From assembly GCA_963825005.1 (NCBI GenBank), contig CAWGRP010000019.1, positions 239,742 to 303,741 of the forward strand: 64,000 nt of DNA, in the 5' to 3' direction. The notes below the pieces were generated by a model. It had not been told where the DNA came from. It was given only the letters and a program-made list of their open reading frames with translations, and searched no databases. The translations under genes and the position numbers were made by a program. Below are positions 2,888 through 54,004 of the stretch, one piece after another. The stretch is from an uncultured delta proteobacterium (lineage in GTDB: Bacteria > Desulfobacterota > Syntrophorhabdia > Syntrophorhabdales > WCHB1-27). Numbering within the stretch: position 1 is the stretch's first letter; every line of letters begins with the position of its first letter.

Positions 2888-3631
2888 TCAAAACATCCCC
2901 GGTATCATTCGCCAGCGGACCTTTGCGCAATATTCAACGTACCCCGGCAGGTTCCTGGCGAGAAACGTCTCTTCGTCCAGAAGACGCCATATGAGGGCGG
3001 GCAGCACGGCCACGAATGCGAGAAGTCCCCAGTACGAGCCGAGCGCAAACGGTGTGCCGATGAATAAGAGCGAGCCTCCCGCGTACATCGGATGGCGCAC
3101 ATACGCATAAGGTCCCGTGGAGATGACTTTCTGATCTTCGGCGATCTCGATTGTCGCTGAACCGAAAGGGTTCTCCCTGAAGACTATAAACATGACATAG
3201 AAGCAGAGCGCCGTCAGCAGGTCGCCCGCGATGATCCCGAAGAGCGGCACGCGTGACCAGGCGAAGCGGTGATCGAGCGCCGGCACAACGAGCAAGGCAA
3301 TGAATCCGGCTGATGCAATGAGCATGATGATCTTTTGCGTCATCTCTTTCTCCGCAGTCGGCCCTCCACTCAAACGACGCTTGAGAAGTGCAGGATCTTT
3401 CTTCATGAGGTAGAGCGTGATCGCGAACGACGCCGTGAAATAGACGGCCAGGTACACCCATGCCTGCCAGTAGTGAACAGTCCCCGCCGTACCAAAAAGC
3501 AGGAGGCTCATGGCAAGAGCAAGAAAGATAAAGCCGAGCCAGGCCTTGGTATTGAGATAGGGTGTTGCGCTCACGTAGTGCCTCTCTTTAACAGAGCTAT
3601 TCACCTGCGTGCATCTGCGATGAAGATGCAA
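2888..3631 (-). CDS. Isoprenylcysteine carboxyl methyltransferase (ICMT)/phospholipid methyltransferase-family membrane protein
   Basis: Multi-TM ORF with the family-typical C-terminal block GPYAYVRHPMYAGGSLLFIGTPFALGSYWGLL. The true start may be an internal GTG (about 3574-3592). Confidence 0.7.
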   Translation of the reverse strand: MHLHRRCTQVNSSVKERHYVSATPYLNTKAWLGFIFLALAMSLLLFGTAGTVHYWQAWVYLAVYFTASFAITLYLMKKDPALLKRRLSGGPTAEKEMTQKIIMLIASAGFIALLVVPALDHRFAWSRVPLFGIIAGDLLTALCFYVMFIVFRENPFGSATIEIAEDQKVISTGPYAYVRHPMYAGGSLLFIGTPFALGSYWGLLAFVAVLPALIWRLLDEETFLARNLPGYVEYCAKVRWRMIPGMF

Positions 3632-6081: not shown

Positions 6082-7317
6082 ATGGATCGGTTCATATGCA
6101 TTCACGGTCATTTCTATCAGCCGCCCCGGGAGAATCCCTGGCTCGAGGCGATAGAAATCCAGGATTCGGCGTATCCGTACCACGACTGGAACGAGAGGAT
6201 CACGGCAGAATGCTATGCGCCCAACTCTGTTTCCAGAATCGTGGACAGCGACAACCGCATCGTTGACATCGTCGGGAACTACGCCAAGATAAGCTTCAAT
6301 TTCGGCCCCACGCTCCTTTCATGGATGCAGACGAACGCGCCGAATGCATATCAGGCTATCATCGATGCCGACCGCGATAGCAGTGAGGCGCGCTCGGGCC
6401 ACGGCAACGCACTTGCGCAGGCTTATGGCCATCTCATCATGCCTCTCGCAAACAAGCGGGACAAACGCACGCAGGTAAAATGGGGCCTTAGAGATTTCGA
6501 ATACCGGTTCGGCCACGCACCTGAGGGCATGTGGCTTCCGGAGACCGCCGTCGACTTAGAGACGCTCGACATCATGGCCGAGCACGGCATCAGGTTTACT
6601 ATCCTTGCTCCGCATCAGGCGGCCAAAATAAAAAGTCTCAAGGCGAAGCAATGGGAGGACGTCAGCGGCTCCCGCATCGATCCGACGAGGGCCTATCTGT
6701 GCAGGCTGCCGTCGGGTCGTAGTATCAACATCCTCTTTTACGACGGGCCGATATCAAAGGCAGTTGCATTCGAGAACATACTCAACTCCGGAGAAGATTT
6801 CGTCAATCGTCTGCTCACCGGTTTCTCGGATCAGAGAGGGTGGGCGCAAATCTGCCACATCGCGACAGACGGCGAGACCTACGGCCACCATCACAAGTTT
6901 GGGGACATGGCTCTCGCCTTTGCGCTTCACCAGATAGAAGCGAGAGGTATCGCCAAACTCACCAATTACGGCGAGTACCTGGAAAAATATCCTCCCGCGC
7001 ATGAGGTATGGATAATCGACAACACGTCATGGAGCTGCGCCCACGGTGTAGAACGATGGCGAGCCGATTGCGGATGTAATTCCGGAGGGCACGCAGGCTG
7101 GAACCAGGCGTGGAGAACGCCGCTTCGGGAAACATTCGATTGGCTGAGAGATAGATTGGTTGATCCGTTCGTCGCGAAATCGGAAGGTCTGCTCAAGGAC
7201 CCATGGGCGGCCAGAGACGATTACGTGGATGTCATACTCGACCGGACGGATGAGAACATAGAGAAGTTCTTGCAGGCGCATGCTGCAAAGGAACTCGACG
7301 CAAGCCGACAAGAATAG
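6082..7317 (+). CDS. Glycoside hydrolase family 57 (alpha-amylase/glucanotransferase-like), N-terminal catalytic part of a frameshifted gene
   Basis: GH57 signature ICIHGHFYQPPRENPW and ..ATDGETYGHHH... Ends at TAG 7315-7317 in the linker that normally continues into the part encoded by the next ORF. Confidence 0.8.
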   Translation: MDRFICIHGHFYQPPRENPWLEAIEIQDSAYPYHDWNERITAECYAPNSVSRIVDSDNRIVDIVGNYAKISFNFGPTLLSWMQTNAPNAYQAIIDADRDSSEARSGHGNALAQAYGHLIMPLANKRDKRTQVKWGLRDFEYRFGHAPEGMWLPETAVDLETLDIMAEHGIRFTILAPHQAAKIKSLKAKQWEDVSGSRIDPTRAYLCRLPSGRSINILFYDGPISKAVAFENILNSGEDFVNRLLTGFSDQRGWAQICHIATDGETYGHHHKFGDMALAFALHQIEARGIAKLTNYGEYLEKYPPAHEVWIIDNTSWSCAHGVERWRADCGCNSGGHAGWNQAWRTPLRETFDWLRDRLVDPFVAKSEGLLKDPWAARDDYVDVILDRTDENIEKFLQAHAAKELDASRQE

Positions 7318-8521
7318 TGTGCTCAAGCTCATGGAGATGCAGCGACATCTTATGTTGATGTACACGAGCTGCGGCTGGTTCTTTGATGAGCTTTCGGGCA
7401 TTGAGACTGTTCAGGTGATTCATTACGCGGGCAGGGCAATCCAGCTCGCCCGGGACCTATTCGGCCTGACGCTTGAGGATGAATTCAAGGTGAGGCTCGC
7501 GTCCGCAAAGAGCAACCTGAGTGAGGTGGGGGACGGCGCGCGCGTCTATGATAGATTTGTGAAGCCGGCAATGGTCGATCTCGGGAACGTAGCCGCGCAC
7601 TATGCGATCAGCTCTTTGATCGAAGAGTATGACAACCCCGCGCGGATTTACTGTTACAACGTCGACAGGGAGGATTACCAGAAACTGCAAACCGGTCAGG
7701 CACGACTTGCCCTGGGCCGCATCGGCGTCGCCTCGACGATTACCCGGGAGACAGAAGTTGCCGGTTTTTCCGTGCTTCATCTGGGTGGACATATCTTCAA
7801 CGGAGGGGTGGAGGCCCGCCTTGATGAGGGCGCCTATCAGTCGATGAAAGAGGAGATGGTCGCTGCTTTTGAAAAGGGGTCGTTTGCCGACATCATCAGG
7901 CTTATCGATCGCCGCTCCGGGATGCAGACGTACTCTCTCCTCAACCTTTTCAGAGACGAACAGAGAAAAATATTGCTCCACGTCATCGACGAGACGCTGG
8001 AAGGGTCAGAGCATGCGTATCGAATCATGTATGAGAATAGTCGTGTCTTGATGCTCTTTGTGCAGGACGCCGGAATGACTGTACCGAAGACGTTTCTCGC
8101 ATCAGCGGAGTTTGTCCTCAACCGGGAGATCAAACAGGCACTCGAGAAGGAGCCGATAGACCTGGAGCAGATCAGAAAGGCACTCGCTGAAATTACACGA
8201 TGGCGCCTTTCGCTGAACGAGGTTGAGGTTGAGTTCAACGTCAGACGAAAGCTGGACGAGATGGTTGACCGATTGCGCGAGTTTCACGCGGATCTTTCTT
8301 TGCTCTCGCAGATCCATGCACTGACAGCACTCTTGCCGTCGCTGCCTTTCCTGGTAAACACCTGGTACCTTCAGAATAGATATTTTGATTTGGTCAAAGA
8401 CGTTTACGGCGGCATGCTTTCAAAAGCGCAAACAGGCGATAGTGACGCGGCAAAATGGATAGAGACGTTTACCGCAATAGGCAAGGCGCTGAGCTTTAAC
8501 ACCGACGCAGTCCTGCACTAA
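7280..8521 (+). CDS. C-terminal (DUF3536-like) part of the same GH57 protein, in the next reading frame
   Basis: ..NSVLKLMEMQRHLMLMYTSCGWFFDELSGIETVQVIHYAGRAIQLA.. is the conserved continuation of long GH57 proteins. It overlaps the previous ORF by 38 nt in another frame. Confidence 0.75.
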   Translation: MLQRNSTQADKNSVLKLMEMQRHLMLMYTSCGWFFDELSGIETVQVIHYAGRAIQLARDLFGLTLEDEFKVRLASAKSNLSEVGDGARVYDRFVKPAMVDLGNVAAHYAISSLIEEYDNPARIYCYNVDREDYQKLQTGQARLALGRIGVASTITRETEVAGFSVLHLGGHIFNGGVEARLDEGAYQSMKEEMVAAFEKGSFADIIRLIDRRSGMQTYSLLNLFRDEQRKILLHVIDETLEGSEHAYRIMYENSRVLMLFVQDAGMTVPKTFLASAEFVLNREIKQALEKEPIDLEQIRKALAEITRWRLSLNEVEVEFNVRRKLDEMVDRLREFHADLSLLSQIHALTALLPSLPFLVNTWYLQNRYFDLVKDVYGGMLSKAQTGDSDAAKWIETFTAIGKALSFNTDAVLH

Positions 8522-10726: not shown

Positions 10727-12366
10727 TATTCGCCTTCTATGAGATCCTTTACGCCTTGCAGCGGAATGGCCACCCACTCCGGACGATTGTTCAACTCGTA
10801 CCCGAGCTCGTAAACCGCTTTTTCCAGAAGATAGGCTTTGAGCATGATCTCCAGATCATTCTGGTCGCTCGCCATAAAGAGTGTATCTTTCACCGTCTGA
10901 AGGTAGGCCCCGATAAAAATTCCCGACACATAACGGTACCATAAATCGGTCCACGGCTGTAAAGAAGGTGTGTCCTCAGGTCTGACCGAGGCTTCTTTGA
11001 GGAGAGCGCTGTAGCCCACATAGTGAAAAGATCTTATCATACCTGCCGCATCCTTGAATGGTGATTGTTTGAGGCGTCTCTCGGTCAAAGGCCTCGCGGG
11101 CTCGCCCTCAAAATCGATGATAACAAAATCTTTTCCGGTATAGAGGACCTGACCCAGGTGATAATCGCCGTGTATCCGCATACGGATCGCGGAAAACTTA
11201 CGGTTCAGGAACTCTTGAAAAAAGGCCAGTATCTTCTGCTCTGATTGGAGGATGAGAAGGGCGTCATCTTTGAGAGCGTCCGGAATTTTCTTGATATTAT
11301 TCTTCAGAAGCTGCAGATTTCTCCTGAGAAGGGTGCGCATCGACTGGAAGACGGAACGCTGATACAATGTCGAGAACGATTCCGGAGTGAAGTCCGGCTG
11401 ATCCTGCATTGACGCCAGAGCGAGGTGCATCTCGCCCGTGCGTCTACCGAGCAGAGCGCTCATCTCCAGAAAATGACCTTCTATCAGTTCCTGCATTACC
11501 TGCGGAATACGGGATGAGTCGATTTCAAAAAGAGATGACGGGGGCTTTGGAATCTCTTTGATCTCTTTCGATTTGGCTAAGACACTTTCGAAGTACCGCA
11601 GGATAGCGTCCTGCGTATAGGTCCAGCCGTCGCCCTGACTGGGAATGAAGCCCTGGAGCAAACCGATTGTGGCCGGGACTCCGGCGAAGCTCCTGTATTC
11701 GACGGCGCCCGCGAAAGGCGCGATCGATCCGAAACCCGCCTGCTCGGTCAAGAGCCTGACGATTTCCTCATCAGGGTTGATCCCCTCGCTCAGCTTACGG
11801 AAAAGCTTGAAATAGAATGTATCCTCATAGAGGAAAGAAGTGTTACTCTGCTCCGCTTTAACCCTCTGAGAACTCAATTGGAGGCTTTTCCCGCCGATGA
11901 GTTTTCTGAAGAGCCTGCCCTGGTAGCCGATCAGTTCGCCTTTTTTCCCCCTGATCTTTTTCCTTCGCGCTATCATCGCGAGAAGGGACTCACGGAACGT
12001 ATTATCGTAGGATGCGTCGTACAGGATTCCTTCATCCTTCCCCGGCGTAGAGCCGCGCGATGATGCTTTCGGGTTGCGCTTCAGTGATCGATTTAGAACG
12101 TACGGTCGCCTCCCCGCTGGAGGACGTGGGGGACGATCCTCCCGATGCAGCGGCTTCTGCTCCCTGCTCTGATTTTTTTGAGAGGACAAATGAAACCGGC
12201 AGGAGGTAGAGCTCCTGCTGACCTTCGATGTAGGATACCTCAAGGAAAAGCAGATACGGCGAATCCGTATTCCCCACGGGTATGGACTCAACAATTTTGA
12301 TTTCCCGGATAGTGCTTGCTTTACCCCCGAACCACCGGCATTGCCGCAGGTAGCCCGGCAGGACAT
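10726..12366 (-). CDS. mak: Maltokinase (Mak/Pep2) catalytic part. This is the 3' half of a treS-mak fusion interrupted by a frameshift; the real coding part starts at about 12043.
   Basis: Kinase motif RIHGDYHLGQVLYTGKDFVIIDFEGEP. The sequence upstream of 12043 in this frame is low-complexity and overlaps treS. Confidence 0.8.
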   Translation of the reverse strand: MSCRATCGNAGGSGVKQALSGKSKLLSPYPWGIRIRRICFSLRYPTSKVSRSSTSCRFHLSSQKNQSREQKPLHREDRPPRPPAGRRPYVLNRSLKRNPKASSRGSTPGKDEGILYDASYDNTFRESLLAMIARRKKIRGKKGELIGYQGRLFRKLIGGKSLQLSSQRVKAEQSNTSFLYEDTFYFKLFRKLSEGINPDEEIVRLLTEQAGFGSIAPFAGAVEYRSFAGVPATIGLLQGFIPSQGDGWTYTQDAILRYFESVLAKSKEIKEIPKPPSSLFEIDSSRIPQVMQELIEGHFLEMSALLGRRTGEMHLALASMQDQPDFTPESFSTLYQRSVFQSMRTLLRRNLQLLKNNIKKIPDALKDDALLILQSEQKILAFFQEFLNRKFSAIRMRIHGDYHLGQVLYTGKDFVIIDFEGEPARPLTERRLKQSPFKDAAGMIRSFHYVGYSALLKEASVRPEDTPSLQPWTDLWYRYVSGIFIGAYLQTVKDTLFMASDQNDLEIMLKAYLLEKAVYELGYELNNRPEWVAIPLQGVKDLIEGE

Positions 12367-18869: not shown

Positions 18870-20609
18870 CTATCTACTGCGGAGCAGCTTCTTCACATCG
18901 GGCCAGCTTCGCGTATTGATCACGTCTTCGGCCTCCAGCCAGCCCCGCCTGGCCTGGGCAACGCCGAACCGCATGAACAGAAGGTCTGTTCTGCTGTGCG
19001 CATCGGTGGAGATGGAAACCTTTACGCCGAAATCTTTTGCCATCTTGCAAAATCTGTCGGAGAGATCGAGGCGATCCGGATTGCCGTTTACCTCCATGAA
19101 GCAGCCCTTGGCGCGCGCTGCTTTCATCAGTTGCTCCATGTCCACGTCGTACGGCTGCCGTTCGTCTATCAGCCGGCCGGTAGGATGAGCGAGGATGTGG
19201 AAATAAGGATTCTCCATTGCCTTCAGGATTCGTTCCGTCTGTTGTGATTTCGAAAGATTAAACTTTGAATGGATCGAGCAAACGGTTATGTCCAGTTCTT
19301 TGAGGATGTTGTCAGGAAGATCCAGAGAGCCGTCCTCGTGAATGTCCACCTCGATCGATTTTAAGATGTGAATCGATTTCAGCCTCTTGTTCAGTTGATC
19401 GATCTCCTGGTTTCGCGCGGCAAGACGGACAGCGTCGAAGCCGCGTGTCATGGCGAGCCGTTGTGTGTGATCGGTAATCGCGATGTATGCATAACCCAGC
19501 TTGGCGGCGGCTTCAGCCATCTCCAGCGGCGTATTCCGACCGTCGGTTGTTTCCTTGGTGTGCGTGTGGAGGTCCCCCTTGATATCCTTTTGTTCAACAA
19601 GTCTTGGAAGGCGTCCTTCGCGGGCTGCCTCGATCTCGCCCCAGTTTTCCCTCAGCTCTGGTTCAATGTAAGGAAGACCCACCTGCCGGTAGACCTCTTC
19701 TTCGGTCTTGCCGGCAATCTGCTTCTCATCCCTGAAGACGCCGTACTCGTTGATTTTCAAGCCGGCCTTCATGCCAAGCTTGCGGATTGCTATGTTGTGC
19801 TCTTTGCAGCCGGTGAAGTAGTGGAGTGCTGCCCCGTAGCTCACCTGGGGCACAAGACGAAGATCGACCTGCAAGCCGGAGCGCAATATCACGCTGGAGC
19901 GGGTCGATCCATGCGAGATGACCTTTTTCACATTCTCATACTGTGTGAAATGCTCCATGATGGGACATTCGGCGCTGCAGGTTGCGAGAATATCGAGGTC
20001 GCCCACTGTCTCTTTCTTGCGGCGGTAGCTTCCGGCGACCTCGATATTCTGTATGCCCTTCACGGCCTGGAGGTAATGAACCAGGGATTCGGCTATCTCC
20101 TCGGCGACCGGAAGCTTGACGCGATCCTTTTTTTGTTCCGTTCCCTCCTCAGGCGTGCCGCCCAATTCTTCCACTATTGCCTGCTCGGTCTTCTTGCCAA
20201 AACCGGGAAGTTCGCTGATCGCGCCTTTGCTCGCCGCCTCTTTCAACTGCTGCATGGTGCTGATGCCCAATGTTTCGTAAAGGGCATGAACGCGTTTGGG
20301 ACCGAGGCCGGCTACCCTCATGAGCTTACCTAATTCGCCGGGCATGCGCGCTTCCATTTCCTGCAGTTCAGGAAACGTTCCGGTCTTCACCATCTGTGCA
20401 ATCTTGTTGGCGAGATCTTTACCAATGCCGGAAAACTGGGTGAGATCTTCGTTCCTGCCGACCATCTCGGCTACACTTTGCGGAAGGCTGGCGATAATAC
20501 GGGCAGCATTTCTGTACGCACGCACCCTGAACTGATTGGCTCCCTCTATTTCGAGCAGGTCCGCCATTTCATTGAAGCGATCAATTATCTCTGCGTTATG
20601 AACGGGCAT
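18870..20609 (-). CDS. polX: Family X DNA polymerase with C-terminal PHP phosphoesterase domain
   Basis: N-terminal ...LLEIEGANQFRVRAYRNAAR, HhH motifs, and the PHP block IKGDLHTHTKETTDG...ITDH. Confidence 0.9.
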   Translation of the reverse strand: MPVHNAEIIDRFNEMADLLEIEGANQFRVRAYRNAARIIASLPQSVAEMVGRNEDLTQFSGIGKDLANKIAQMVKTGTFPELQEMEARMPGELGKLMRVAGLGPKRVHALYETLGISTMQQLKEAASKGAISELPGFGKKTEQAIVEELGGTPEEGTEQKKDRVKLPVAEEIAESLVHYLQAVKGIQNIEVAGSYRRKKETVGDLDILATCSAECPIMEHFTQYENVKKVISHGSTRSSVILRSGLQVDLRLVPQVSYGAALHYFTGCKEHNIAIRKLGMKAGLKINEYGVFRDEKQIAGKTEEEVYRQVGLPYIEPELRENWGEIEAAREGRLPRLVEQKDIKGDLHTHTKETTDGRNTPLEMAEAAAKLGYAYIAITDHTQRLAMTRGFDAVRLAARNQEIDQLNKRLKSIHILKSIEVDIHEDGSLDLPDNILKELDITVCSIHSKFNLSKSQQTERILKAMENPYFHILAHPTGRLIDERQPYDVDMEQLMKAARAKGCFMEVNGNPDRLDLSDRFCKMAKDFGVKVSISTDAHSRTDLLFMRFGVAQARRGWLEAEDVINTRSWPDVKKLLRSR

Positions 20610-20842
20610 GGCTAGCTAGCGCCTCCATTAACCAAATCTAATACCAATTCGTGGTCAAGGGTGTAGGCCGGGGGGCACTCCGGGCCACACGAACAAATGT
20701 GCATGAGAAAATGGAAAGGCAAAGGCCGGTTAGTTCAGGGGCACGTGAGAAATGCGTATAAAAAAGGAAGGGGCGGGGAAGACCGTTTTCTCCGCTCTCT
20801 CAATAGATTGCAGGTTCTATTTAGTGCACGCGAGAAGTGGAT

Positions 20843-21107
20843 GGCCAGCCGGAAGAACTGTTCGTTCCACGAGTTAGGCGCTGCAGGTCTGACCCGCGCT
20901 ACACTCCGCCTCCTTCGATGCTCATTGCGAACTCCTCTTTTCAGGCTTCCTGTATTGGCAGCTCGCAAAATATAGGATTTGCGTCTGCTCGGCCTCGGAG
21001 TCAGGCGCATCGTGCCGCGCCAATCACATGCGCGGCAACAGTCGTCTCCGCTGCCGGGTCCCCAGACCTTCCGCGATACTCGTTCCACGAACAGTTCTTC
21101 CGGCCGG
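20843..21107 (-). repeat. Family-1 repeat, subtype 1, copy A1 (about 265 nt, rod-forming)
   Basis: The reverse complement aligns end to end with 25881-26143 and 44330-44597. Terminal arms are GGCCAGCCGGAAGAAC / GTTCTTCCGGCCGG. Confidence 0.85.
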
Positions 21108-21169
21108 TCATTATGTGCGTTGTTGTGTCTGACAAAATTTTAAAACAATACCGTAGAGCCCGGTGGGCT

Positions 21170-21417
21170 GGGAGGACCTTTTTCGGAGCGAACATCGCGG
21201 AAGGGCTGGGGACCCGTAAACGCAGGCGAGTGGTGCTGCACATCGTGAGGTGCAGCACGATGCGTCCGACTCCGAGGCCTCGCAGCTCTGAACAATCTGG
21301 TTTGCGAGCTGCCATGGTAATCTACGGTACCCGAGGGGTTCGCAGTCAAAAAGCATCGAACTCGCCGGAGTGTCCAACGGGTCAGACCTGGAGCGTCTAG
21401 AGAGCGGAGAAAACGGT
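21170..21417 (+). repeat. Family-1 repeat, subtype 2, copy A2
   Basis: By eye, the reverse complement of 25527-25775 differs from this copy at only scattered positions. It shares conserved blocks with subtype 1 (ATCGCGGAAGGGCTGGGGACCCG, GACTCCGAGGCC, GTTTGCGAGCTGCC, GTTCGCA, CGGGTCAGACCTGGAGCG). Confidence 0.85.
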
Positions 21418-21532
21418 GCGAGCAGCCCGCCCTTTCCCGCGGCGTGGATTTCTTGCTCTTCCGTGTTTAGTGTATAGTTAGCGCCGTTGCGATGACCATT
21501 GCTGTGGTGAATGCGGACACACCGGGCGTCAT

Positions 21533-23704
21533 GTGAGCATGAAAGAATCGCGGTTTCAATTCGGCCTCTATTTCTTGCCCTTCGTCATATGGGTTCCGCT
21601 CATCATTTTTCTTCTCTGGTTTGTCTTCCATTACGTTGACCTGAAGCCGCAGGTAAACGAGAACTTCTTCTTCGCGAGCAGTGATCCGCAACTGCAGACA
21701 GACCGGTTGATCTCGAAGCTCTTTATACAGGAAGATCAACTCGTCGTGGCTGCAACGGGTGACATCCGTTCTCCTCGATATCTCGAGAAATTACACCGCC
21801 TGACGGAAGAGCTCTCGGCTATTCCGCAGATTGACACGGTGGAATCCCTGGTAAAAGGACCCAAGGACACTGATGAGGCCCTGAAGAGCCCTCTCTGGAA
21901 ACGGGTCCTCTTTTCCGAAGATCACAAGGCTTCTTTTGTCTACGTCTGGGTAAAGCGGCAAGCTTCGTTGGATAAAGCGGTCGCGGGGATTGAACATGTT
22001 GTGCTCCGTCTGAATACGCCCGATTTTCCACTCAGGATATCCGGCGCCCCGTACATCATGCATCTCATCGAGCGCAATCTTTTGCGAGACCTGAAGATAT
22101 TCAGCATTGGGGCCTTTTGTGTCTTCGGACTCTGCGGCCTCGCAATATCGCGCTCAATTCCCATGGTCCTTGGAACGCTGATCGCCTGCACCATCGCAAG
22201 CGCCGTCACTCTGATGCTGACGCACAAATTCGCCATACCGGTCGGGCCTCTCACTGCCAACCTTTCCACGATCGTCTTCGTGCTCACGCTCACCCACATG
22301 GTATTCATGACCTACAATTTCCGGCACATCATCCAGAAGAAAGAGGCAGCTCTCGATGAAGCGTGGCGCCGGGCGGTAAGGGTCACGATACTGCCGTCGT
22401 CTTTGAGCATGCTCACCGCGCTTTTCGGTTTTTTGAGCCTTCTTATCGTTCCTGCAACACCGCTGCGCCAACTGGGAATCTCCGGTGCCATCGGGACGGT
22501 TATCGCTTTCGTATCAGCTTATGTTGTCTATCCTTTATTTCTGAGGGCACAAAGATCAGGCCTCGCTCCTCAACATAAGAAGACGGCGGATGCGCGCACC
22601 GAATCGACAGACGTAGCGCCATTCTTCAGAAAGAGGCACGGCAGGATTGTTGCGCTCATTCTCATCGCTGCAGCGGGTGCTTCGATAGGCCTCTGGACGC
22701 TGAACACGGAGCCGAGTATCTTTTCCTATTTCAAGAAAGGGAGCGAACTGAGAACGAGTCTCGAATATTTCGACCGGAACGGCGGGAGCATCCCGCTCAA
22801 TATGGTGGTGGCGAATCCCAATAAGGCGCCGTTCAAGATCGGTGAAGACTACCAGAGGCTCTGGAACCTTCAGACGGCACTGGAGAAGGATCCTGCCGTA
22901 GGAACCGTAATGTCTCTGGCGCTCCTTCTCGCCGAGGCCAAGACCAGGCACCCGGTACTCACCTTTTTTATTCCGCTGAAATGGGTGCTGAAAGCGTTGG
23001 AAAGCAGCCGCTTCGAGAACGCGGCAAAGTATTACATATCAAATGATGAATCGAAAACGCTCCTCGTGCTGAGAATGAAAGAGGAGTCGCAGCAATCCGA
23101 TCGGCTGGCAAACGTTGAGCGGCTGAAGAAAATAGTCCGCAAAGAAGGGTTTGAGCCGGTGCTCATAGGAGGCACGTACGTGCTGTATGGGAAACTTTCA
23201 AAGCTCGTGGGATCGAGTCTCATCGAAGGTCTCGGGCTTCTGGTCCTGATGTTCACGATCATGGGCGGTATCATCTCCCGCTCCTTCAGAGTGACTGTGG
23301 CGGTCTTCATCGGTTTGGCTGATATTCCTCTCCTGCTGCTTGGCCTGATAGGTCTTTTCCGTATTCCTATAGATATCATTTCAGCTCCCGGCGCCAATAT
23401 CGCCATCGGGATCGGCGTGGATGCGATGATCCACATGCTTATCTGGGTGAGACGCCACCCGGCCGGCATGCGCTCCTGGGAGGCGTGGTCTCCCGTCAGC
23501 TCGAGATTGCGAAAGCCGATTCTTTATTCCATGAGCGTCGTCTGTGCCGGATTCGGAATCTTCATGCTGTCCGGTTTCCCTCCCACGCAGCGTTTTGGTT
23601 TCTCGGTCGTACTGGGAACATTGCTGACGCCGCTCTCGGCGCTCTTCATCCTGCCATGGTTCAGCACGATGCAACTGGGTTGGCATCGTTCAAAGGTTTC
23701 ATGA
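21533..23704 (+). CDS. MMPL/RND-superfamily membrane transporter
   Basis: 723 aa with two blocks of about 6 TM helices separated by soluble loops, the typical MMPL/SSD architecture. Confidence 0.75.
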   Translation: MSMKESRFQFGLYFLPFVIWVPLIIFLLWFVFHYVDLKPQVNENFFFASSDPQLQTDRLISKLFIQEDQLVVAATGDIRSPRYLEKLHRLTEELSAIPQIDTVESLVKGPKDTDEALKSPLWKRVLFSEDHKASFVYVWVKRQASLDKAVAGIEHVVLRLNTPDFPLRISGAPYIMHLIERNLLRDLKIFSIGAFCVFGLCGLAISRSIPMVLGTLIACTIASAVTLMLTHKFAIPVGPLTANLSTIVFVLTLTHMVFMTYNFRHIIQKKEAALDEAWRRAVRVTILPSSLSMLTALFGFLSLLIVPATPLRQLGISGAIGTVIAFVSAYVVYPLFLRAQRSGLAPQHKKTADARTESTDVAPFFRKRHGRIVALILIAAAGASIGLWTLNTEPSIFSYFKKGSELRTSLEYFDRNGGSIPLNMVVANPNKAPFKIGEDYQRLWNLQTALEKDPAVGTVMSLALLLAEAKTRHPVLTFFIPLKWVLKALESSRFENAAKYYISNDESKTLLVLRMKEESQQSDRLANVERLKKIVRKEGFEPVLIGGTYVLYGKLSKLVGSSLIEGLGLLVLMFTIMGGIISRSFRVTVAVFIGLADIPLLLLGLIGLFRIPIDIISAPGANIAIGIGVDAMIHMLIWVRRHPAGMRSWEAWSPVSSRLRKPILYSMSVVCAGFGIFMLSGFPPTQRFGFSVVLGTLLTPLSALFILPWFSTMQLGWHRSKVS

Positions 23705-23724: not shown

Positions 23725-23963
23725 TCATCGCAGATGAACGCAGATAAGGAAAAGAGAGATGTTCACAGATGATATGCCGGTGGACAGCATTGAGATAGAG
23801 CGACAATGCTGTCCACACTTCAGCGCTCCGCGGGTCAGGTCTCACCCCACCGGAGGTGCTGGGGTTGACCGGCTGTGACGCTCTATCACACAGGCGGTCA
23901 AGAAATAATCATCAGCGTTCATCATAGCCCTTATCCGCTCTTATCTGCGATGAAGAAAGCGGG
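23725..23963. repeat. Family-4 MITE-like repeat, long copy 1
   Basis: Termini TCATCGCAGATgaacGCAGATAAGG / CCCTTATCCGCTCTTATCTGCGATGA. Internal 13-bp hairpin GTGGACAGCATTG...CAATGCTGTCCAC. Homologous to 32652-32914. Confidence 0.8.
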
Positions 23964-24021
23964 CTGTGAGTGATATCTGTCGCAGTATTGCGACATAAAC
24001 CTGACTGAAGGAGTCAGACCC

Positions 24022-25260
24022 ATGAAGATCACGATTTTAACCAACGAATATCCGCCACACGTGTATGGAGGAGCAGGTGTGCACGTCGAACACCTTGCGC
24101 GAGAACTTTCCAGGCTGCGCGAAGAAGATCTCTCGGTGCAGGTGCTTTGTTTCGGCGACCAGAGAGAAGAGTCACCTCCACTGCATGTACAGGGGATAGA
24201 AAAACCGTGCGATATACGGTCGAGCGATGAGCGCGACGCCAAATTGCTCGAGACGTTTCTCAGAGACGTGATGATGGTCGGTGCTGCGCAGGATACCGAT
24301 ATTGTTCATTGTCACACCTGGTATACGCACCTGGCGGGTTGTCTCGTGAGGCAACTGCGGCAGTGTCCTCTGGTGCTCACCACGCATTCTCTGGAACCTC
24401 AGCGCCCGTGGAAGGAGGAGCAACTCGGGTCGGGCTATGCAGTCAGCACATGGGTCGAGAAGACCGCCTACCACAGTGCCGATGGAGTGGTCGCAGTCTC
24501 TCAATCGATGAAACAGGCTGTGCATGATCTGTATGGCGTCCCGTTTGAGAAGGTGCAAGTGATTCCGAACGGCGTTGACACCGAGGTCTACAAACCAACG
24601 CCTGACCCTGCGCTTCTTGCATCCTTTGGTATCGATCCGGCCAAACCGTACCTGCTCTTCGTGGGAAGGGTTACACGGCAGAAAGGTATCATCCACCTCG
24701 TGAATGCAATCAAGCATCTCGCATCAAATGTGCAGGTCGTACTCTGCGCCGGGGCGCCGGACACGCCTGAGATCGGACGCGAGATGGCTGAAAAGGTCGA
24801 ATCCGTGCGGGCGCAAACGCAGAACCCGATCATCTGGATAGAGCGCTGGGTTCCGCGTGACCAGATCGTCACGCTCTACACGCACGCTTCTTTGTTTGTC
24901 TGCCCGTCAGTCTATGAGCCGTTCGGTATTATCAACCTTGAGGCGATGGCCTGCGGCACGCCGGTCGTTGCATCCGCAGTGGGCGGTATCCCGGAAGTGG
25001 TGGTTCAGGGGAAAACCGGTCTGCTGGTGCCGTTCGAGAGCAAGGCTGAGAATGATCCGGAACCTCGGGAACCGGAACGATTTGCCGCAGACCTGGCTGG
25101 CGCGATCGATCGCATTTTCAGCTTGTCTGCTGATATGGACCTCATGCGCCGAAGCTGCCGCGAATGGGTAGAGGAGCGCTTCAGCTGGAAAACCGTGGCG
25201 AGCGAGACGTACCGGTTCTACAGTGACCTGATAAAGACCGACCGCTCCGCGAAGACGTAG
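24022..25260 (+). CDS. GT4 glycosyltransferase of the actinobacterial glycogen-synthase type, a likely GlgM-like alpha-maltose-1-phosphate synthase
   Basis: MKITILTNEYPPHVYGGAGVHVEHLAREL.., HTWYT.LAG, THSLEP.RPWK.EQLG.GY, FVGR.TRQKG, CAGAPDTPEI and VCPSVYEPFGIINLEAMACGTPVVAS. By recollection it aligns along the whole length with mycobacterial GlgM. Confidence 0.8.
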   Translation: MKITILTNEYPPHVYGGAGVHVEHLARELSRLREEDLSVQVLCFGDQREESPPLHVQGIEKPCDIRSSDERDAKLLETFLRDVMMVGAAQDTDIVHCHTWYTHLAGCLVRQLRQCPLVLTTHSLEPQRPWKEEQLGSGYAVSTWVEKTAYHSADGVVAVSQSMKQAVHDLYGVPFEKVQVIPNGVDTEVYKPTPDPALLASFGIDPAKPYLLFVGRVTRQKGIIHLVNAIKHLASNVQVVLCAGAPDTPEIGREMAEKVESVRAQTQNPIIWIERWVPRDQIVTLYTHASLFVCPSVYEPFGIINLEAMACGTPVVASAVGGIPEVVVQGKTGLLVPFESKAENDPEPREPERFAADLAGAIDRIFSLSADMDLMRRSCREWVEERFSWKTVASETYRFYSDLIKTDRSAKT

Positions 25261-25307
25261 GACGCTAGGACGACCGTCATGCTGACCGGGGCAGGTCGGG
25301 CCGCTCG

Positions 25308-25440
25308 GACCGTTTTCTCCGCGAACTAGGCGCTCCGAAAAGGCTCCTCCCCGCCCGCCAGGCCAGTGCAGTATTGTCTTAAAATGTTGTCAGACACAAT
25401 AACGCAACACAATGGCCGGCCGGAAGAACTTTCGTTCCAC
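25308..25440 (-). repeat. Family-1 partial composite copy B1: internally deleted subtype 2, the central spacer, and only the terminal arm of subtype 1
   Basis: The reverse complement matches 21085-21190 (..GAACGAAAGTTCTTCCGGCCGGCCATTGTGTTGCGTTATTGTGTCTGACAACATTTTAAGACAATAC..). It then jumps from GGAGCG to the subtype-2 3' end CCTAGTTCGCGGAGAAAACGGTC. Confidence 0.7.
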
Positions 25441-25526
25441 TCTCCATTCGAGTAGGTAGGAGCGATCAGAAAGGCATCCGACGAGTTGAGTCGACTAGAA
25501 CCGTACCGAAGGGGGGGGCGGGGAGG

Positions 25527-25775
25527 ACCGTTTTCTGCACTCTCTAGGCGCTCCAGGTCTGACCCGTTGGACACTCCGGCGAGTTCGATGCTTTTTGACT
25601 GCGAACCCCTCGGGTACCGTAGATCACCATGGCAGCTCGCAAACCTGCATTGTTCTGACCTGCTAGGCCTCGGAGTCGGACGCATCGTGCTGCACCTCGC
25701 GATGTGCAGCACCACTCGCCTGCATTTACGGGTCCCCAGCCCCTCCGCGATGTTCGCTCCGAAAAAGGTCCTCCC
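25527..25775 (-). repeat. Family-1 repeat, subtype 2, copy B2
   Basis: Reverse complement of A2 (21170-21417). Confidence 0.85.
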
Positions 25776-25880
25776 CGCCCTCACCCGGTCGATGATAAAT
25801 TGAACACGACGAAAATTTAATCGTCAGACATAAATCGTGCAGGGTATTGGCATTTACAAGAAAAGTAACGACTATGGTAT

Positions 25881-26143
25881 GGCCAGACGGAAGACTTTCG
25901 TGGAACGAGTATCGCGGGAGGTCTGGGGACCCGGCAGCGCAGACGACTGGTGCCGCGTATCTGATTGGCGCGGCACGACGCGCCTGACTCCGAGGCTTGA
26001 GTGAGCGTCAGAGGTTAGTTTGCGAGCTGCCGATCTCGGAAGATTGGAGAAAGGTGTTCGCAATGAGCGTCGAAGGAGGCGGAGCGTAGCACGGGTCAGA
26101 CCGGGAGCGCCTAACTCGTGGAATGAAAGTGTTCCGGCTGGCC
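25881..26143 (+). repeat. Family-1 repeat, subtype 1, copy B3
   Basis: GGCCAGACGGAAGACTTTCGTGGAACGAGTATCGCGGGAGGTCTGGGGACCCGG...CGGGTCAGACCGGGAGCGCCTAACTCGTGGAATGAAAGTGTTCCGGCTGGCC. Confidence 0.85.
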
Positions 26144-26213
26144 ATTCCTTTATGCAGCGGTAGTTTGTCTGTTTTGCAGGGCGAACTGGTAAAAAGATGA
26201 AGGCTTGTAGATT

Positions 26214-26453
26214 TTACAGCGAGAAATTGGAGAGCTGGTACGGGATCTCTTTCTCTTCGAGGATCTGTTTTTTCTCGAAGTAGATCTCGCCTGCTGCGAT
26301 CTCTCTCAAGGCGGTCACTACTTCCTTGTTGGCTGATTTGACCAGGGGGCGGGCGCCTTTAACTAACTGCTTGGTCCTCTTGGCTGCAAGATGTACGAGC
26401 TCGAAGCGGTTTTCTACATGCGCCATGCAGTCTTCAACAGTTATTCTTGCCAT
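26214..26453 (-). CDS. rpoZ: DNA-directed RNA polymerase subunit omega
   Basis: [30 protein letters not shown] is the canonical RpoZ N-terminus. Confidence 0.9.
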
Positions 26454-32651: not shown

Positions 32652-32914
32652 TCATCGCAGATTTACGCAGATGAATAAAAGAGATATTCGCAGAGTGCGC
32701 AGCCTCCTGTAAGGGTGACCAAGCTTGTGTCCAGCATTGTGATACAGCGTCAATGCTGTCCATCCACCCGCAAGCGGGTACCCGAGCGCTCCGCGCAGGG
32801 GTGTCACCTCACCGGAGGTGCTGCAGGTTGACCGGCTGTGCCGCCCTATCGCACAGGCGGTCAAGAATGAATCATCCGCAGTTATCAGAGCCTTTATCCG
32901 CTCTTATCTGCGAT
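32652..32914. repeat. Family-4 MITE-like repeat, long copy 2
   Basis: Termini TCATCGCAGATttacGCAGATGAAT / GCCTTTATCCGCTCTTATCTGCGAT. The interior is collinear with 23725-23963 (..CACCGGAGGTGCTG..GTTGACCGGCTGTG..CACAGGCGGTCAAGAA..). Confidence 0.8.
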
Positions 32915-32992
32915 AAAATGCTCTGTCTTAATGAACTGGACGGTGAAAAGGTTCAAAAAGTTTGACAACCTATAAGAAATAAGGAGATCAAT

Positions 32993-36960: not shown

Positions 36961-37052
36961 ATGCAGATGAAAGCTGATAAGAGCCAAGAGAGATGTTCGC
37001 AGATGCGTATGATCGTTCATCAAGGCTTTTATCCGCTCTTATCGGCGATGAA
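36961..37052. repeat. Family-4 repeat, short (termini-only) copy
   Basis: GCAGATGAAAGCTGATAAGAGCC...GGCTTTTATCCGCTCTTATCGGCGATGA. It creates the spurious N-terminal extension of ORF 36961..37509. Confidence 0.7.
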
Positions 37053-37104
37053 AAGCAGTGTCTTGCGAAAAGGGTTTGACACTGAAGCGAGGAGGGAGGA
37101 GATT

Positions 37105-37509: not shown

Positions 37510-37548
37510 AAGAGCGGCCAAAAGGTCTTGTGACAAGCAAAGGACGAT

Positions 37549-37775
37549 TTCACCACAGAGGCACAGAGGTCACAGAGAAGTGCTCCACGGAGAACCGAAA
37601 TTATTCGTGTCCGAAACAGTGGAGATTCTGTTCCGGACACACACCGACGCTCCGCGTAGGTGTGGAAGGCATCTCGCCTCCCGCAGGGATGCGAGTGACC
37701 GGATATGGTCGTCTCCCCATATCCGGTCGAAACTACTTAGGGCTTCCTCTGTGTACTCTGTGCCTCCGTGGTGAA
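37549..37775 (+). repeat. Family-2 repeat, copy 1 (about 227 nt)
   Basis: Terminal inverted repeats CACCACAGAGGCACAGAG / CTCTGTGCCTCCGTGGTG and four internal hairpins. Collinear with 41261-41488. Confidence 0.85.
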
Positions 37776-37828
37776 TACAAGTAGTTTTCGAAGCCTGGCG
37801 AAAAGTCGGGCACGAGTAGGAGGATTGA

Positions 37829-41215: not shown

Positions 41216-41260
41216 TGGCCGGTGAATTTGTTAAACGTTTTATGAAAAAGGAAATGAAAA

Positions 41261-41488
41261 TTCTACCACAGAGGCACAGAGGGCACAGAGAAGTGCTCCA
41301 CGGAGAAAGAATAATTTCGTGTCCGGAACAGTGGAGATTCTGTTCCGGACACACACCGACGCTCCGCGTAGGTGTAGTAAGTACCTGTGCCCCGCAGGGG
41401 TGCAGGTGACCGGATATGGCCGTCTCCCCATATCCGGTCAGAAACTACTTAAGGCTTTCCTCTGTGTCCTCTGTGCCTCCGTGGTGAA
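41261..41488 (+). repeat. Family-2 repeat, copy 2
   Basis: Same orientation as copy 1 and collinear with it. Confidence 0.85.
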
Positions 41489-41526
41489 TGAAAATAACTG
41501 ACATGCCTTAGTCAAAGGAGCATGCT

Positions 41527-42789: not shown

Positions 42790-43030
42790 GAGGGAAGACC
42801 GCCGCGGGCTAGGAAGATCGTTCGCGATGCTCACTAGGAAGACCGCCTTCGGCTAGGAAGATGGAAGAGAGAAACCTATATCTACTGAGACGGTACCAGC
42901 GGATGTTCGCTTTTGCTTCCTAGTCACGCCAAGGCGTGACGGTCTTCCTGGCGCGTAGCGCGATCTTCCCCCCTTCGGGGACTTCGCCTCTTCCTAGCCC
43001 TCCAGGTCCCCGCAAGGGGGGCAGCGGTCT
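42790..43030. repeat. Family-3 word repeat element, copy 1
   Basis: Multiple CTAGGAAGA(C/T)CG words in both orientations around the core GGAAGAGAGAAACCTATATCTACTG..ACCAGCGGATGTTCGCTTTTGCTTCCTAGTCACGCC. Collinear with 49056-49298. Confidence 0.8.
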
Positions 43031-43095
43031 TTTTCCATTTGACATCGGATATTGGTTCTATCTATAATAGGTCAGACCTATTAGCGGAGGTGTCT

Positions 43096-44262
43096 ATGAG
43101 CGGCTATCACAAAAGGGATTTTGACAATTTCCCGATGCATACGATCACAAGGGTCGACCGGCCCACGACGATCATACATGACAACGAGGTAAAGAGAGTC
43201 GATGAGCGCGACAGCGGCTTCAATAAAGCATCCGCGGGCCTGTACGGTCCCATCCTAGCCAAGGAGAGACCGCGCTTCGTCATGAAGCATCCCCTCTCAG
43301 GGGCACTCGGACAGATGCAGCTTTTTCTCAGGGATATCGTCGACGGCATGGTGGCGAAGCAAAAGGCTCCGATCCCGGAAGATCCTTCGATTCTGGCTCG
43401 CCACATCAAGGAGACGGCCTACTTCTTGAGGTCGGATGCCGTCGGTATCTGCGAGCTTCCCCCGTATGCAGTCTACACCCACAGCTTTCCTGACGGCGAG
43501 CCGGTGGAGTGCAATCACAAATATGCCATAGGCATTCTTATCGATCAGGACTATAGAACATCACATGCCACGAACGGTCATAACTGGATCAGCAACTCGA
43601 TGAGCTTCGTAGCCTATTCCGCATCCGGTTTTATCGCGTGTATTCTCGCCGAGTATATCCGGAGACTCGGTTATCCTGCAAGGGCGCATCACGCCCGTAA
43701 CTATCAGGTAGTCGTCCCCCCGATCCTTCTGTGGGCAGGCCTGGGCGAGATGAGCCGGATCGGCGACAGTGTGCTCCATCCTTTCATGGGGCCCCGTTTC
43801 AAGGCAGCGGTTGTGACGACCGATCTGCCCATGGCTATCGACAAGCCGATCGATTTCGGATTGCAGGATTTTTGCTCCAAGTGTAAGAAGTGCGCCCGCG
43901 AATGCCCGTCCGGTGCGCTCACCGATGGCGGCAAAGAGATATACAACGGCTACGAACACTGGCCGAGTAACATTCGCAAATGCACTACCATGCGCGTGGG
44001 GAACCAGCACGGCTCGGGCTGCGGCACCTGTATCAAGGCCTGTCCCTGGAATAAGCCCTATACGCCGTTTCACCGCGCGGTGGGCTGGGCCATGCGCCAT
44101 TCAGGCGCAGCGCGAAGCCTCGCCATCTGGGGTGACGATCTGATGGGTTACGGCAAGGCCCATCCGGAGGAGCAGTGGTGGCTCGATCTCGAAGAGATCG
44201 ACGGGGTGGTGCAATTACCAAGGAAGCACACAGGCAAACATCTATGGGCAGCGGACGAATAA
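43096..44262 (+). CDS. Reductive-dehalogenase (RdhA)-family protein, cytoplasmic type with no Tat signal
   Basis: Two Fe-S motifs, CSKCKKCARECP and C..(x11)..CGTCIKACPW. The start MSGYHKRD at ATG 43096 follows GGAGG. The ORF track starts at 43039. Confidence 0.75.
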   Translation: MSGYHKRDFDNFPMHTITRVDRPTTIIHDNEVKRVDERDSGFNKASAGLYGPILAKERPRFVMKHPLSGALGQMQLFLRDIVDGMVAKQKAPIPEDPSILARHIKETAYFLRSDAVGICELPPYAVYTHSFPDGEPVECNHKYAIGILIDQDYRTSHATNGHNWISNSMSFVAYSASGFIACILAEYIRRLGYPARAHHARNYQVVVPPILLWAGLGEMSRIGDSVLHPFMGPRFKAAVVTTDLPMAIDKPIDFGLQDFCSKCKKCARECPSGALTDGGKEIYNGYEHWPSNIRKCTTMRVGNQHGSGCGTCIKACPWNKPYTPFHRAVGWAMRHSGAARSLAIWGDDLMGYGKAHPEEQWWLDLEEIDGVVQLPRKHTGKHLWAADE

Positions 44263-44329
44263 TAACGGTTCGTTCTGAACACCTTCGTTATCGAGCTTTC
44301 TGGTAATTAGATGGGGACGAATAATCAAT

Positions 44330-44597
44330 GGACAGCCGGAAGAACTTTCGTGGAACGAGCATCGCGGGAGGTCTGGGGACCCGGCAGCGGAGATGACTGG
44401 TGCCGCGTATCCGTATGGGCGCGGCACGACGCGTTCTGACTCCGAGGCTTGAGTAAACGTAAAGAGAATAGTTTGCGAAGTGCCAGAGGGCAAATGATCA
44501 TGGGCAACGTTCGCAATGAGCGTCGAAGGAGTCGGAGCGTAGCACGGGTCAGACCGGGAGCGCCTCGCTCGTGGAACGAACAGTCTTCCGGCTGGCC
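44330..44597 (+). repeat. Family-1 repeat, subtype 1, solitary copy C
   Basis: Collinear with B3 and with the reverse complement of A1. Confidence 0.85.
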
Positions 44598-44621
44598 ATT
44601 TCCTTAACCGAAGGGGTGTTG

Positions 44622-46396: not shown

Positions 46397-46418
46397 CGAT
46401 GTGAGGGAGGAGGAAGCT

Positions 46419-49003: not shown

Positions 49004-49055
49004 ATTGAATCGTAGTTACTAAAAGTCTATTGAGCAAGGGGGCGCGTGAAAGACA

Positions 49056-49298
49056 GACCGCTGCGCTAGGAAGACCGTTCGCGATGCTCACTAGGAAGAC
49101 CGCCTTCGGCTAGGAAGATGGAAGAGAGAAACCTATATCTACTGGACGGACCAGCGGATGTTCGCTTTGCTTCCTAATCACGCCAGAGGCGTGATGGTCT
49201 TCCTAGCGAACGTAGTGAGCGGTCTTCCTAGCGCGCAGCGCGGTCTTCCCTCTTCCTAGCGAACGTAGTGAGCGATCTTCCTAGCGAAGCGATCTTCC
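49056..49298. repeat. Family-3 word repeat element, copy 2
   Basis: Collinear with 42790-43030, with extra CTAGCGAACGTAGTGAGCG(G/A)TCTTCCTAG words at the right end. Confidence 0.8.
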
Positions 49299-49480: not shown

Positions 49481-49555
<75 letters not shown>

Positions 49556-49608
49556 GCCGTCTTAAGTTTATAATATAATCCCGTATCCATGTCAATGCCT
49601 GCTGCCGG

Positions 49609-53996: not shown

Positions 53997-54004
53997 TCTT
54001 TGCT

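Follow-up and report, generated by a model that had tools for sequence, protein, structure and literature searches.

The window analysed here is a stretch of 64,000 nt from an uncultured delta proteobacterium (contig CAWGRP010000019.1, positions 239,742 to 303,741). Its intergenic regions carry an element of ~270 nt, present as five full-length copies and one decayed copy, which belongs to a genuine and previously undescribed family of structured repeats. Four of the full copies flank a 4-kb segment containing an MMPL-family gene and a GT4 glycosyltransferase gene; PolX lies beyond this segment on one side and rpoZ-gmk-yicC on the other. The fifth, copy C, is solitary. It is found between a 4Fe-4S protein gene and a GntR-family regulator gene, which is followed by a TRAP transporter gene (Table 1).

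Copies in the window

The initial annotation, which was made from the sequence alone, had placed the repeat at six sites. All six are present within a few bases: R1, a covariance model built from the five full copies (274 positions, 78 pairs), scores these copies at 253-289 bits and the sixth, B1, at 29 bits. The complementary strand of A1 scores just 30.6 bits. Repeat finding recovers cross-matches among 20.8-21.4 kb, 25.3-26.1 kb and 44.3-44.6 kb. When the five full copies are aligned, mean column identity is 79%, and the ordered conserved blocks and two subtypes are as the annotation described them. A1 and B3 are 85-94% identical, and A2 and B2 92-95%, in both cases in inverted orientation.

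The annotation listed these copies singly and missed their arrangement. A1-spacer-A2 (20838-21432) and B2-spacer-B3 (25508-26148) are one and the same ~600-bp unit in opposite orientations. Each intact unit comprises a subtype-1 arm and a subtype-2 arm placed 5' end to 5' end, with a spacer of 46 nt (pair A) or 91 nt (pair B); the two units form 600-bp inverted repeats around the MMPL/glycosyltransferase segment. B1 had been called a partial copy; it is indeed incomplete, and its composition is that of a third, decayed unit in tandem with pair B, made up of an internally deleted subtype-2 copy, a spacer and a ~30-nt subtype-1 fragment.

Table 1. Repeat copies, spacers, neighbouring genes and artefactual open reading frames (ORFs); window coordinates unless a locus is named
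Feature	Position	Strand	Details
PolX gene	18870-20609	-	A1 3' end points toward it
A1, subtype 1, full length	20838-21112	-	R1 285.8 bits, model positions 1-274
Spacer of pair A	21113-21158		A+T-rich; near-palindrome TGTCTGACA; -10-like boxes toward both arms (CATAAT for A1)
A2, subtype 2, full length	21159-21432	+	R1 253.3 bits
MMPL gene	21533-23704	+	A2 3' end points toward it
Glycosyltransferase (GT4) gene	24022-25260	+	Pfam; B2 3' end points toward B1 and the 3' end of this gene
B1, decayed pair unit	25287-25440	-	R1 29 bits, model positions 1-274 with a large deletion; nhmmer match to 3' end
B1 part: both ends of a subtype-2 copy, interior deleted	25294-25362	-	R1
B1 part: spacer like that of pair A	25350-25406		77% similar to pair A spacer
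B1 part: ~30-nt terminal subtype-1 fragment	25407-25440		Inverted matches
B2, subtype 2, full length	25508-25786	-	R1 254.2 bits
Spacer of pair B	25787-25877		A+T-rich; has GTCAGACA; weak -35/-10-like boxes on both strands
B3, subtype 1, full length	25878-26148	+	R1 289 bits
rpoZ	26214-26453	-	3' end faced by B3 3' end
4Fe-4S protein gene	43039-44262	+	Pfam; upstream neighbour of copy C
C, subtype 1, solo, full length	44327-44602	+	R1 280.3 bits
GntR-family regulator gene	ATG 44623	+	Downstream neighbour of copy C; TRAP transporter gene after it
Antisense artefact ORF	44242-44715	-	
Antisense artefact ORF	L037, 10001-10474		
Antisense artefact ORF	L038, 3131-3571		

Secondary structure and covariation

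The repeat had been proposed to form a strand-specific, conserved secondary structure, and covariation bears this out. Among 21 copies aligned to R1, standard pairs occupy 85.3% of cells, against 30-41% when the pairing partners are slid by 1-3 columns. Double-sided changes occur in 40 of the 78 pairs; the same displacement leaves 11-15. Not one of 500 column shuffles reached the observed pairing values by any measure. From a MAFFT alignment of 22 copies, made independently of the model, RNAalifold finds 38 pairs, 14 of them with compensatory changes. Every copy in the window folds far better than shuffled sequences do: copy C has a minimum free energy (MFE) of -124.9 kcal/mol (z -5.4), against -106.9 kcal/mol for its complement. 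For A1, the consensus fold and the MFE fold agree.

The fold has 12 helices and two branch points. A closing stem, P1, and seven further helices make up a rod, which leads into a branched head. The rod shape suggested earlier therefore holds for eight helices; the inner third is not part of a plain rod and consists of the multi-branch head (helices 9-12). The terminal pairing arm also proved to be real: P1 is G+C-rich, joins both ends of the element and has double changes in 12 of its 13 pairs, and its sequence differs between subfamilies with pairing retained. Within the head are a length-variable hairpin (helix 9), a short stem (helix 10), a region with the invariant GACUCCGAGGC, and a further hairpin, with a variable loop, whose closing strands are UUUGCGAG/(G)UUCGCAA. 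The hairpin that distinguishes the subtypes keeps its pairing, as annotated, through double changes from C-G to U-A and from G-C to A-U.

Unpaired nucleotides are conserved together with the helices; between genomes, no parts of the element are kept better than its internal helices and its unpaired blocks. In the head, three strands are invariant (GACUCCGAGGC, UUUGCGAGCUGC and GUUCGCA). Candidate pseudoknot partners of GACUCCGAGGC, of CGGAG type, vary without compensation while the GACUCCGAGGC block does not change. The rod contains conserved purine-rich internal loops, namely GGA opposite GGA, GGRA opposite NGGA, and a GGG bulge beside ACCCG/CGGGU. The GGA/GGA loop had been noted as kept in every copy. 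It is genuine; of 20 copies drawn from several genomes, 16 retain GGA on the 5' side and 17 do so on the 3' side, with GUA, GCA, AGA and GAA as variants. The second symmetric loop was given as GGGAG opposite GGGAG, which is exact just in B3 and C; other copies have, for example, GGAAG opposite UGGAG, so that the loop is purine-rich without a fixed sequence. The GGG(N) bulge adjoining ACCCG/CGGGU is nearly invariant.

Distant copies may carry optional inserts, which repeat the core module GGGUACCCG-loop-CGGGU. The insert caps are a CUUG tetraloop in L030 and a GAGA tetraloop in L022; both belong to classic RNA tetraloop families. A different insertion of ~22 nt (CCUUACAGGAUGCUCC...) is common to L009 (~3270-3330) and L031 (~640-680), which come from different sources. 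It occupies the same point in the CGGGU-CAGAC strand and is tandemly duplicated in L009.

Functional strand

Helices of the family contain 98 G-U or U-G oppositions and 33 A-C or C-A oppositions, the latter being the wobbles of the other strand; the excess of G-U establishes which strand is functional. Purines make up 58% of the sense strand. There are 103 A.G and G.A oppositions, clustered in the conserved loops.

These features can be set against the idea of an ordinary cut-and-paste miniature inverted-repeat transposable element (MITE), in which P1 would serve a DDE transposase as duplex terminal inverted repeat and the folding inside the element would have no significance. Inverted-repeat termini, a length of 260-300 bp, multiple copies and intergenic location all fit such an element. 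The window also has a second, unrelated family of ~246 nt with a near-perfect 33-bp closing stem, and the genome is thus rich in such elements. However, P1 covaries and its sequence is not kept, G-U exceeds A-C threefold, and this strand asymmetry argues against such an element. Identical non-complementary loops are retained on one strand, the best conserved parts are internal, and no target-site duplication is found. A plain double-stranded terminal inverted repeat does not explain these data, as the annotation had already argued, and we regard a MITE as quite improbable.

Two other roles were considered and rejected. A protein-coding function is incompatible with stops in all six frames of most copies and with length differences that are not multiples of three. 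The 'hypothetical proteins' of 146-157 amino acids found in public gene calls and in the ORF list are antisense open frames across the element, and are annotation artefacts. The annotation had also speculated on CsrA binding; a CsrA sponge of the CsrB/RsmZ type is not supported, since GGA occurs 9.0 times per copy where composition predicts 7.5. Hairpin loops hold just 18 of the 188 GGAs (~10%); a further 112 fall in internal loops or junctions, and helices contain the other 58.

Distribution of the family

R1 finds ~19 further copies in uncultured Syntrophobacterales-type genomes and in wetland and peat metagenomes. An exact-pattern scan covering one genome per species located the family at nine loci in three metagenome-assembled genomes (MAGs CAWGEZ, CAWIHO and JADGQN), labelled 'uncultured delta proteobacterium' (two Microflora Danica bins) and 'Syntrophobacterales bacterium' (Chersky permafrost). 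A second pattern located it on ~9 metagenome contigs. Searching protein databases with a translation of the antisense frame gave just two matches; both are real copies amid housekeeping genes, one a pair (L037) and one a solo arm (L038). The family was not found in the viral contigs, plasmids and phage collections searched. Pattern matches in Actinobacteria, Dormiibacterota and several metagenome contigs look like chance: they lie in unrelated, mostly G+C-rich sequence and are missed by the profile and the model (L002, L005, L008, L011, L014, L015, L018-L021, L023, L025, L027 and L032 were set aside for this reason).

The PolX encoded in the window is at most 76% identical to any other PolX. 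Named homologues (63-70%) are from Syntrophorhabdaceae, Syntrophorhabdales and Syntrophobacteria, which places the host in an uncultured lineage close to these groups. Look-ups of the exact rpoZ and PolX proteins gave no recorded match.

The annotation had not recognised the repeat as a known RNA family, and searches of Rfam 15 agree: no family matches, 6S, HEARO, IS605-orfB, T-box and Y RNA included. At the gathering threshold, the window contains two tRNAs only. With E up to 10, region 20700-21500 matches just two sub-threshold miRNA hairpin models, which span the A1/A2 junction; five loci from relatives gave no match with E up to 1. Literature searches found analogies only and no description of the repeat family.

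Mobile-element genes were sought in 40 of the 63 window ORFs of at least 80 amino acids (all outside 34.6-43 kb) and in the ORFs flanking copies at nine other loci. No transposase (including Y1), TnpB/IscB, integrase or reverse transcriptase gene is present among these ORFs. No target-site duplication was found around single copies or pairs, and the flanks have no fixed target motif; 5' flanks share a loose A-rich tendency.

A stand-alone scaffold or guide RNA, used by a mobile-element enzyme encoded elsewhere, might have such a distribution. The parallel would be the ORF-less HEARO/omega-RNA of IscB/TnpB, or some other system built on an RNA-guided recombinase. HEARO RNAs reach high copy numbers within a genome, and many lack the ORF; the repeat is likewise multi-copy, ~270 nt long, structured and strand-specific, with a conserved core and discrete boundaries, and is dispersed among unrelated genes. 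However, neither HEARO nor the IS605-orfB motifs match it in Rfam (E up to 10), and no IscB, TnpB or recombinase gene lies beside copies in the scanned loci. Both ends are locked in P1, leaving no obvious free guide segment, and the flanks lack a conserved target motif. This explanation is improbable.

Divergent pairs

The pair layout extends beyond the window. Seven other loci (L003, L004, L006, L009, L012, L031 and L037) have a ~275-nt partner, P, in divergent orientation upstream of the element. P resembles the element in its outer architecture, with P1, loops of GAGCG type, the GGGUACCCG/CGGGU module, and CCGAGG and GCGAGYU blocks, and its own sense strand forms a helix rich in G-U; in the divergent orientation it gives weak matches to R1. 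With pairs A, B and B1, ten divergent pairs are known; tandem and convergent pairs number zero. Spacers are ~20-95 nt and the two arms are always of different types, being 54-66% alike (54-58% in pairs with P). Arms range from 255 to 337 nt across the family.

Over their full length with the spacer, pairs are 76-88% alike, whether the comparison is made between unrelated loci in a single MAG or across MAGs. The pair is therefore a unit of dispersal, and its limits are the outer (3') ends of the P1 stems. Solo arms can also be observed (C, L001, L007/L026, L010, L013, L038 and others).

Within a pair, the arms may also pair with each other. Pair A, folded as one strand, forms a ~210-bp inter-arm hairpin of -336 kcal/mol, against -254 kcal/mol for the separate rods (RNA parameters); with DNA parameters the values are -172 and -131 kcal/mol (z -12). 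Inter-arm pairs number 209-214 in the window pairs and 13-147 in pairs with P. In these predicted structures, the inter-arm hairpin is not conserved while the fold within each arm is.

This layout raises a second DNA-based explanation. Repetitive extragenic palindromic (REP) sequences of Escherichia coli occur in bacterial interspersed mosaic elements (BIMEs), which have two inverted units of different subtypes (Y and Z). REP doublets forming hairpins (REPINs) are inverted doublets of imperfect palindromes with a short spacer, and singlets are their remnants (PMC3116915, PMC3337134). The repeat could be a giant element of this kind, acting as folded single-stranded DNA (ssDNA). The inverted doublet would then be what replicates, moved in trans by a Y1 (HUH) tyrosine transposase of the RAYT or IS200/IS605 TnpA type that is encoded once in the genome and reads the bulges and loops peculiar to one strand; arms found singly would be remnants unable to move.

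Several observations fit. The ten inverted doublets match the REPIN definition, target-site duplications are missing as HUH transposition predicts, and sites are intergenic, often 20 nt or less from a convergent stop codon. Conservation is strand-asymmetric, B1 is a decayed copy, and the inter-arm hairpin of pair A is far more stable than two rods. Against this, an arm of ~270 nt with 12 helices, a branched head and invariant strands exceeds any REP or IS200/IS605 end hairpin ~10-fold in size and complexity. Covariation is found inside the arm and not between arms, inter-arm pairing is not kept in pairs with P, inserts carry RNA-type tetraloops, and the ORFs scanned include no Y1 transposase. 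On balance we consider giant REPINs somewhat unlikely. The suggestion in the initial annotation of ssDNA hairpins like those of IS200/IS605 palindrome-associated transposable elements (PATEs) gained no positive evidence; the scanned ORFs contain neither Y1 transposase nor TnpB, and the arms lie on opposite strands.

Gene context

Genes flanking the copies are ordinary housekeeping genes, unrelated to one another, and include two-component systems, molybdopterin oxidoreductase, an aconitase-family small subunit, ferritin, MazG, transporters and amidohydrolases. Roughly ten copies are upstream of, and co-directional with, a gene (A1/PolX, A2/MMPL and C/GntR in the window). About 13 point at the stop codon of a convergent gene, often no more than 20 nt away. 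Pair B and L012 have convergent genes on both sides, each arm facing the 3' end of one of them; any sense transcript must therefore start in the spacer. The closest PolX homologues (70-76% amino acid identity) have different neighbours and no element, so the element is not tied to PolX.

A cis-acting leader of the adjacent gene (a riboswitch, attenuator or mRNA-stability element) could be suspected from the ~10 copies that precede a co-directional gene. However, the ~13 copies aimed at stop codons of convergent genes exclude a riboswitch or leader at those sites, neighbouring genes have no common function, neither arm of pair B or L012 precedes a co-directional gene, and PolX homologues lack the element. 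These contexts come close to refuting a leader, which is very unlikely.

Copy C and the adjacent GntR and TRAP-transporter genes are bracketed by paralogous 4Fe-4S protein genes, the one upstream of copy C and another at 46401-47600 (~72% DNA identity over more than 800 nt).

Conservation and recombination

At the orthologous site L007/L026, the element is 97.3% identical, compared with 87.5-87.7% for the flanking intergenic DNA and 90.6% for the ferritin gene. On sequence comparison, this excess indicates purifying selection, or conversion from a conserved master copy.

L001 and L013 share 4 kb of homology (81-90%) up to the element; past the element's 3' end, the 38 bases with which L001 finishes are only 47% alike. 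The element itself is 79.7% identical in these loci, with subfamily-specific segments swapped, which points to recombination among copies. Together with B1 and the inverted 600-bp repeats, these loci show that copies behave as dispersed repeats that recombine and decay.

Transcription signals and proposed function

Hexamers resembling -10 boxes (for example CATAAT, TATCAT, TGTAAT and GATAAT) are found in the ~20 nt preceding P1 in 30% of copies; the figure for random positions is 4% (p = 2e-5). A mild excess of T marks the 12 nt that follow P1 (p = 0.004), and roughly half of the copies have a T-rich run there when 3' flanks are read by eye. The spacers in the window share a near-palindrome, TGTCAGACA, with -35-like TTGTCA or CTGACA on the two strands. 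In pair B, the boxes are TTGGCA-N17-GACTAT toward B3 and TTAAAT-N17-TATCAT toward B2. These signals are weak, and the promoter role of the spacer and the terminator role of P1 are putative.

We tentatively favour, at a little under an even chance, a reading in which the repeats encode a new family of stable structured RNAs, and in which the dispersed module that expresses them, typically a divergent hetero-pair, is self-contained. Each copy would be a gene-sized module for a stable, highly structured RNA of ~270 nt that would act in trans. The short A+T-rich spacer would drive outward transcription into both arms, and P1, along with the T-rich run in about half of the copies, would help to set the 3' end. 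A protein partner, or tertiary or quaternary RNA contacts, would probably engage the invariant loops and junction strands. With the P1 stems as its exact limits, the module, as a pair or a single arm, would have spread to numerous unrelated intergenic sites through a mobilising enzyme encoded away from it; copies would then act as recombination points and could decay.

RNA is favoured over ssDNA by the elaborate branched fold, the RNA-type tetraloops on inserts and the convergent-gene contexts of divergent pairs. A structured RNA and a REPIN-like ssDNA element are not mutually exclusive.

Several points weigh against stable RNAs. Transcription of the arms is deduced from sequence. Around the window copies, strict scans for sigma-70 promoters and intrinsic terminators found no more than chance would give; the control for -10 hexamers includes coding DNA, and part of that signal is A+T-rich intergenic sequence. 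In the tightest pairs the spacer is ~31 nt, and promoters would overlap the P1 of the partner. Folded ssDNA also accommodates G.T wobbles and G.A mismatches, and strand asymmetry alone does not separate the two. The alignment behind the R1 pair counts was fitted to the structure of the model. The element in L001/L013 is no better conserved (79.7%) than third codon positions (73-80%). In addition, high local copy number, sharp boundaries, decayed copies and breakpoints at element ends fit a selfish mobile element.

A more specific form of the structured-RNA proposal is possible, if doubtful: a new class of large structured bacterial RNA in which a tiny, self-contained bidirectional module yields two RNAs that differ but are homologous. 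The purine loops, GGGNACCCG/CGGGU and the junction strands would be sites of protein binding or RNA assembly, possibly with a hetero-dimer of the arms, and the product would be a ribonucleoprotein, or a machine of RNA alone, for which no counterpart has been described. Such a module may have spread in genomes of uncultured anaerobes of Syntrophobacterales/Syntrophorhabdia type.

Comparison with known repeats and RNAs

The repeat is set apart from known intergenic structured repeats by the size and elaboration of its arms, its invariant unpaired blocks and its heterotypic divergent-pair layout. Like REPINs and BIMEs, it is intergenic and multi-copy, consists of imperfect palindromes with strand-specific irregularities, occurs as inverted doublets and singlets, and lacks target-site duplications; its paired arms differ in subtype, as do Y and Z. 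In contrast, the REP unit is a simple hairpin of 20-40 nt (doublet ~100 nt), whereas the arms of the repeat are 255-337 nt with 12 helices. These arms are only 54-66% alike, covariation is inside each arm, and there is no GTAG-type head motif; no RAYT gene was seen in the ORFs scanned. PATEs of IS200/IS605 share the lack of target-site duplication. Unlike the repeat, whose arms are on opposite strands with no fixed motif, PATEs have both end hairpins on one strand and insert 3' of a fixed tetra- or pentanucleotide.

ERIC, Correia/NEMIS, RUP and BOX are transcribed palindromic repeats or MITEs. As in the repeat, they are imperfect palindromes over their whole length, lie between unrelated genes in either orientation, and often number more than one per intergenic region. 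The same applies to the 'multicopy nucleotide sequences' of Geobacter genomes (PMC2996986), which are moreover from related, delta-proteobacterial-type genomes. All these repeats differ in being simple hairpins of 100-170 nt, usually with target-site duplications or a TA target. Their unpaired nucleotides are little conserved across genera; in the present repeat these are the most conserved and the fold is branched.

HEARO/IscB omega-RNA and IS605-orfB RNAs share a length of a few hundred nt, an elaborate fold, many copies (many without an adjacent ORF) and discrete boundaries. The repeat differs in having no Rfam match, no IscB/TnpB in the loci scanned, P1-closed ends and divergent hetero-pairs. 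OLE, ROOL, GOLLD and raiA resemble it in their complex conserved folds, invariant junction and loop nucleotides, lack of known function, and discovery by comparison in uncultured bacteria. However, these RNAs are single-copy or prophage-linked and larger (~200-800 nt), do not form dispersed divergent pairs, and match the repeat neither in sequence nor by model. Some ornate large bacterial RNAs assemble through RNA-RNA contacts (PMC12286853).

If the arms are transcribed, they would be a well-supported candidate for the short list of large bacterial RNAs without known function, with an unusual layout of divergent hetero-pairs spreading as a unit. If the functional form is folded DNA instead, the REPIN/RAYT idea would be stretched to elements that are ten times larger than any known and far more elaborate. 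Either way, the copies mark recombination breakpoints, examples being the 600-bp inverted repeats that flank the MMPL/glycosyltransferase segment and the homology between two loci that stops exactly at the element end. This is relevant to genome plasticity, assembly and annotation in these uncultured syntrophs, which are of environmental importance; spurious ORFs across the element are already in public data.

Other features of the window

The second structured repeat (~246 nt) is present at 37545-37790 and 41248-41496 (+), with copies 86-92% alike. A near-perfect closing stem of ~33 bp surrounds five hairpins (MFE -125 kcal/mol, z -10.2). It has no Rfam match and is missed by the model of the main family.

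A third, short repeat is found at 23863-23966, 32826-32929 and 37019-37064, with the common motif TTATCCGCTCTTATC(T/G)GCGAT(G/A)AA. The first two copies also share an upstream part of ~60 nt with a hairpin, GGTTGACCGGCTGTG...CACAGGCGGTCAA. One copy is located between the MMPL and glycosyltransferase genes, within the segment bracketed by pairs A and B.

Some genes look split or truncated (6082-8521, 52917-54598 and 10778-12031). A GH57/DUF3536 gene is in two overlapping ORFs, and a fumarate-reductase-like flavoprotein is in two ORFs. A 1.25-kb gap without ORFs adjoins a TreS/maltokinase-like gene. All these may reflect indel errors in long-read assembly or may be pseudogenes.

Repeats built on CTAGGAAGACC are found at 42808-42887, 49050-49247 and 49608-49879; they include a pair of 80-nt copies that are 99% identical and a local inverted repeat. 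Tandem repeats of 128-145 nt adjoin tRNA-Cys (49325-49399, -) and tRNA-Gly (49481-49555, -).

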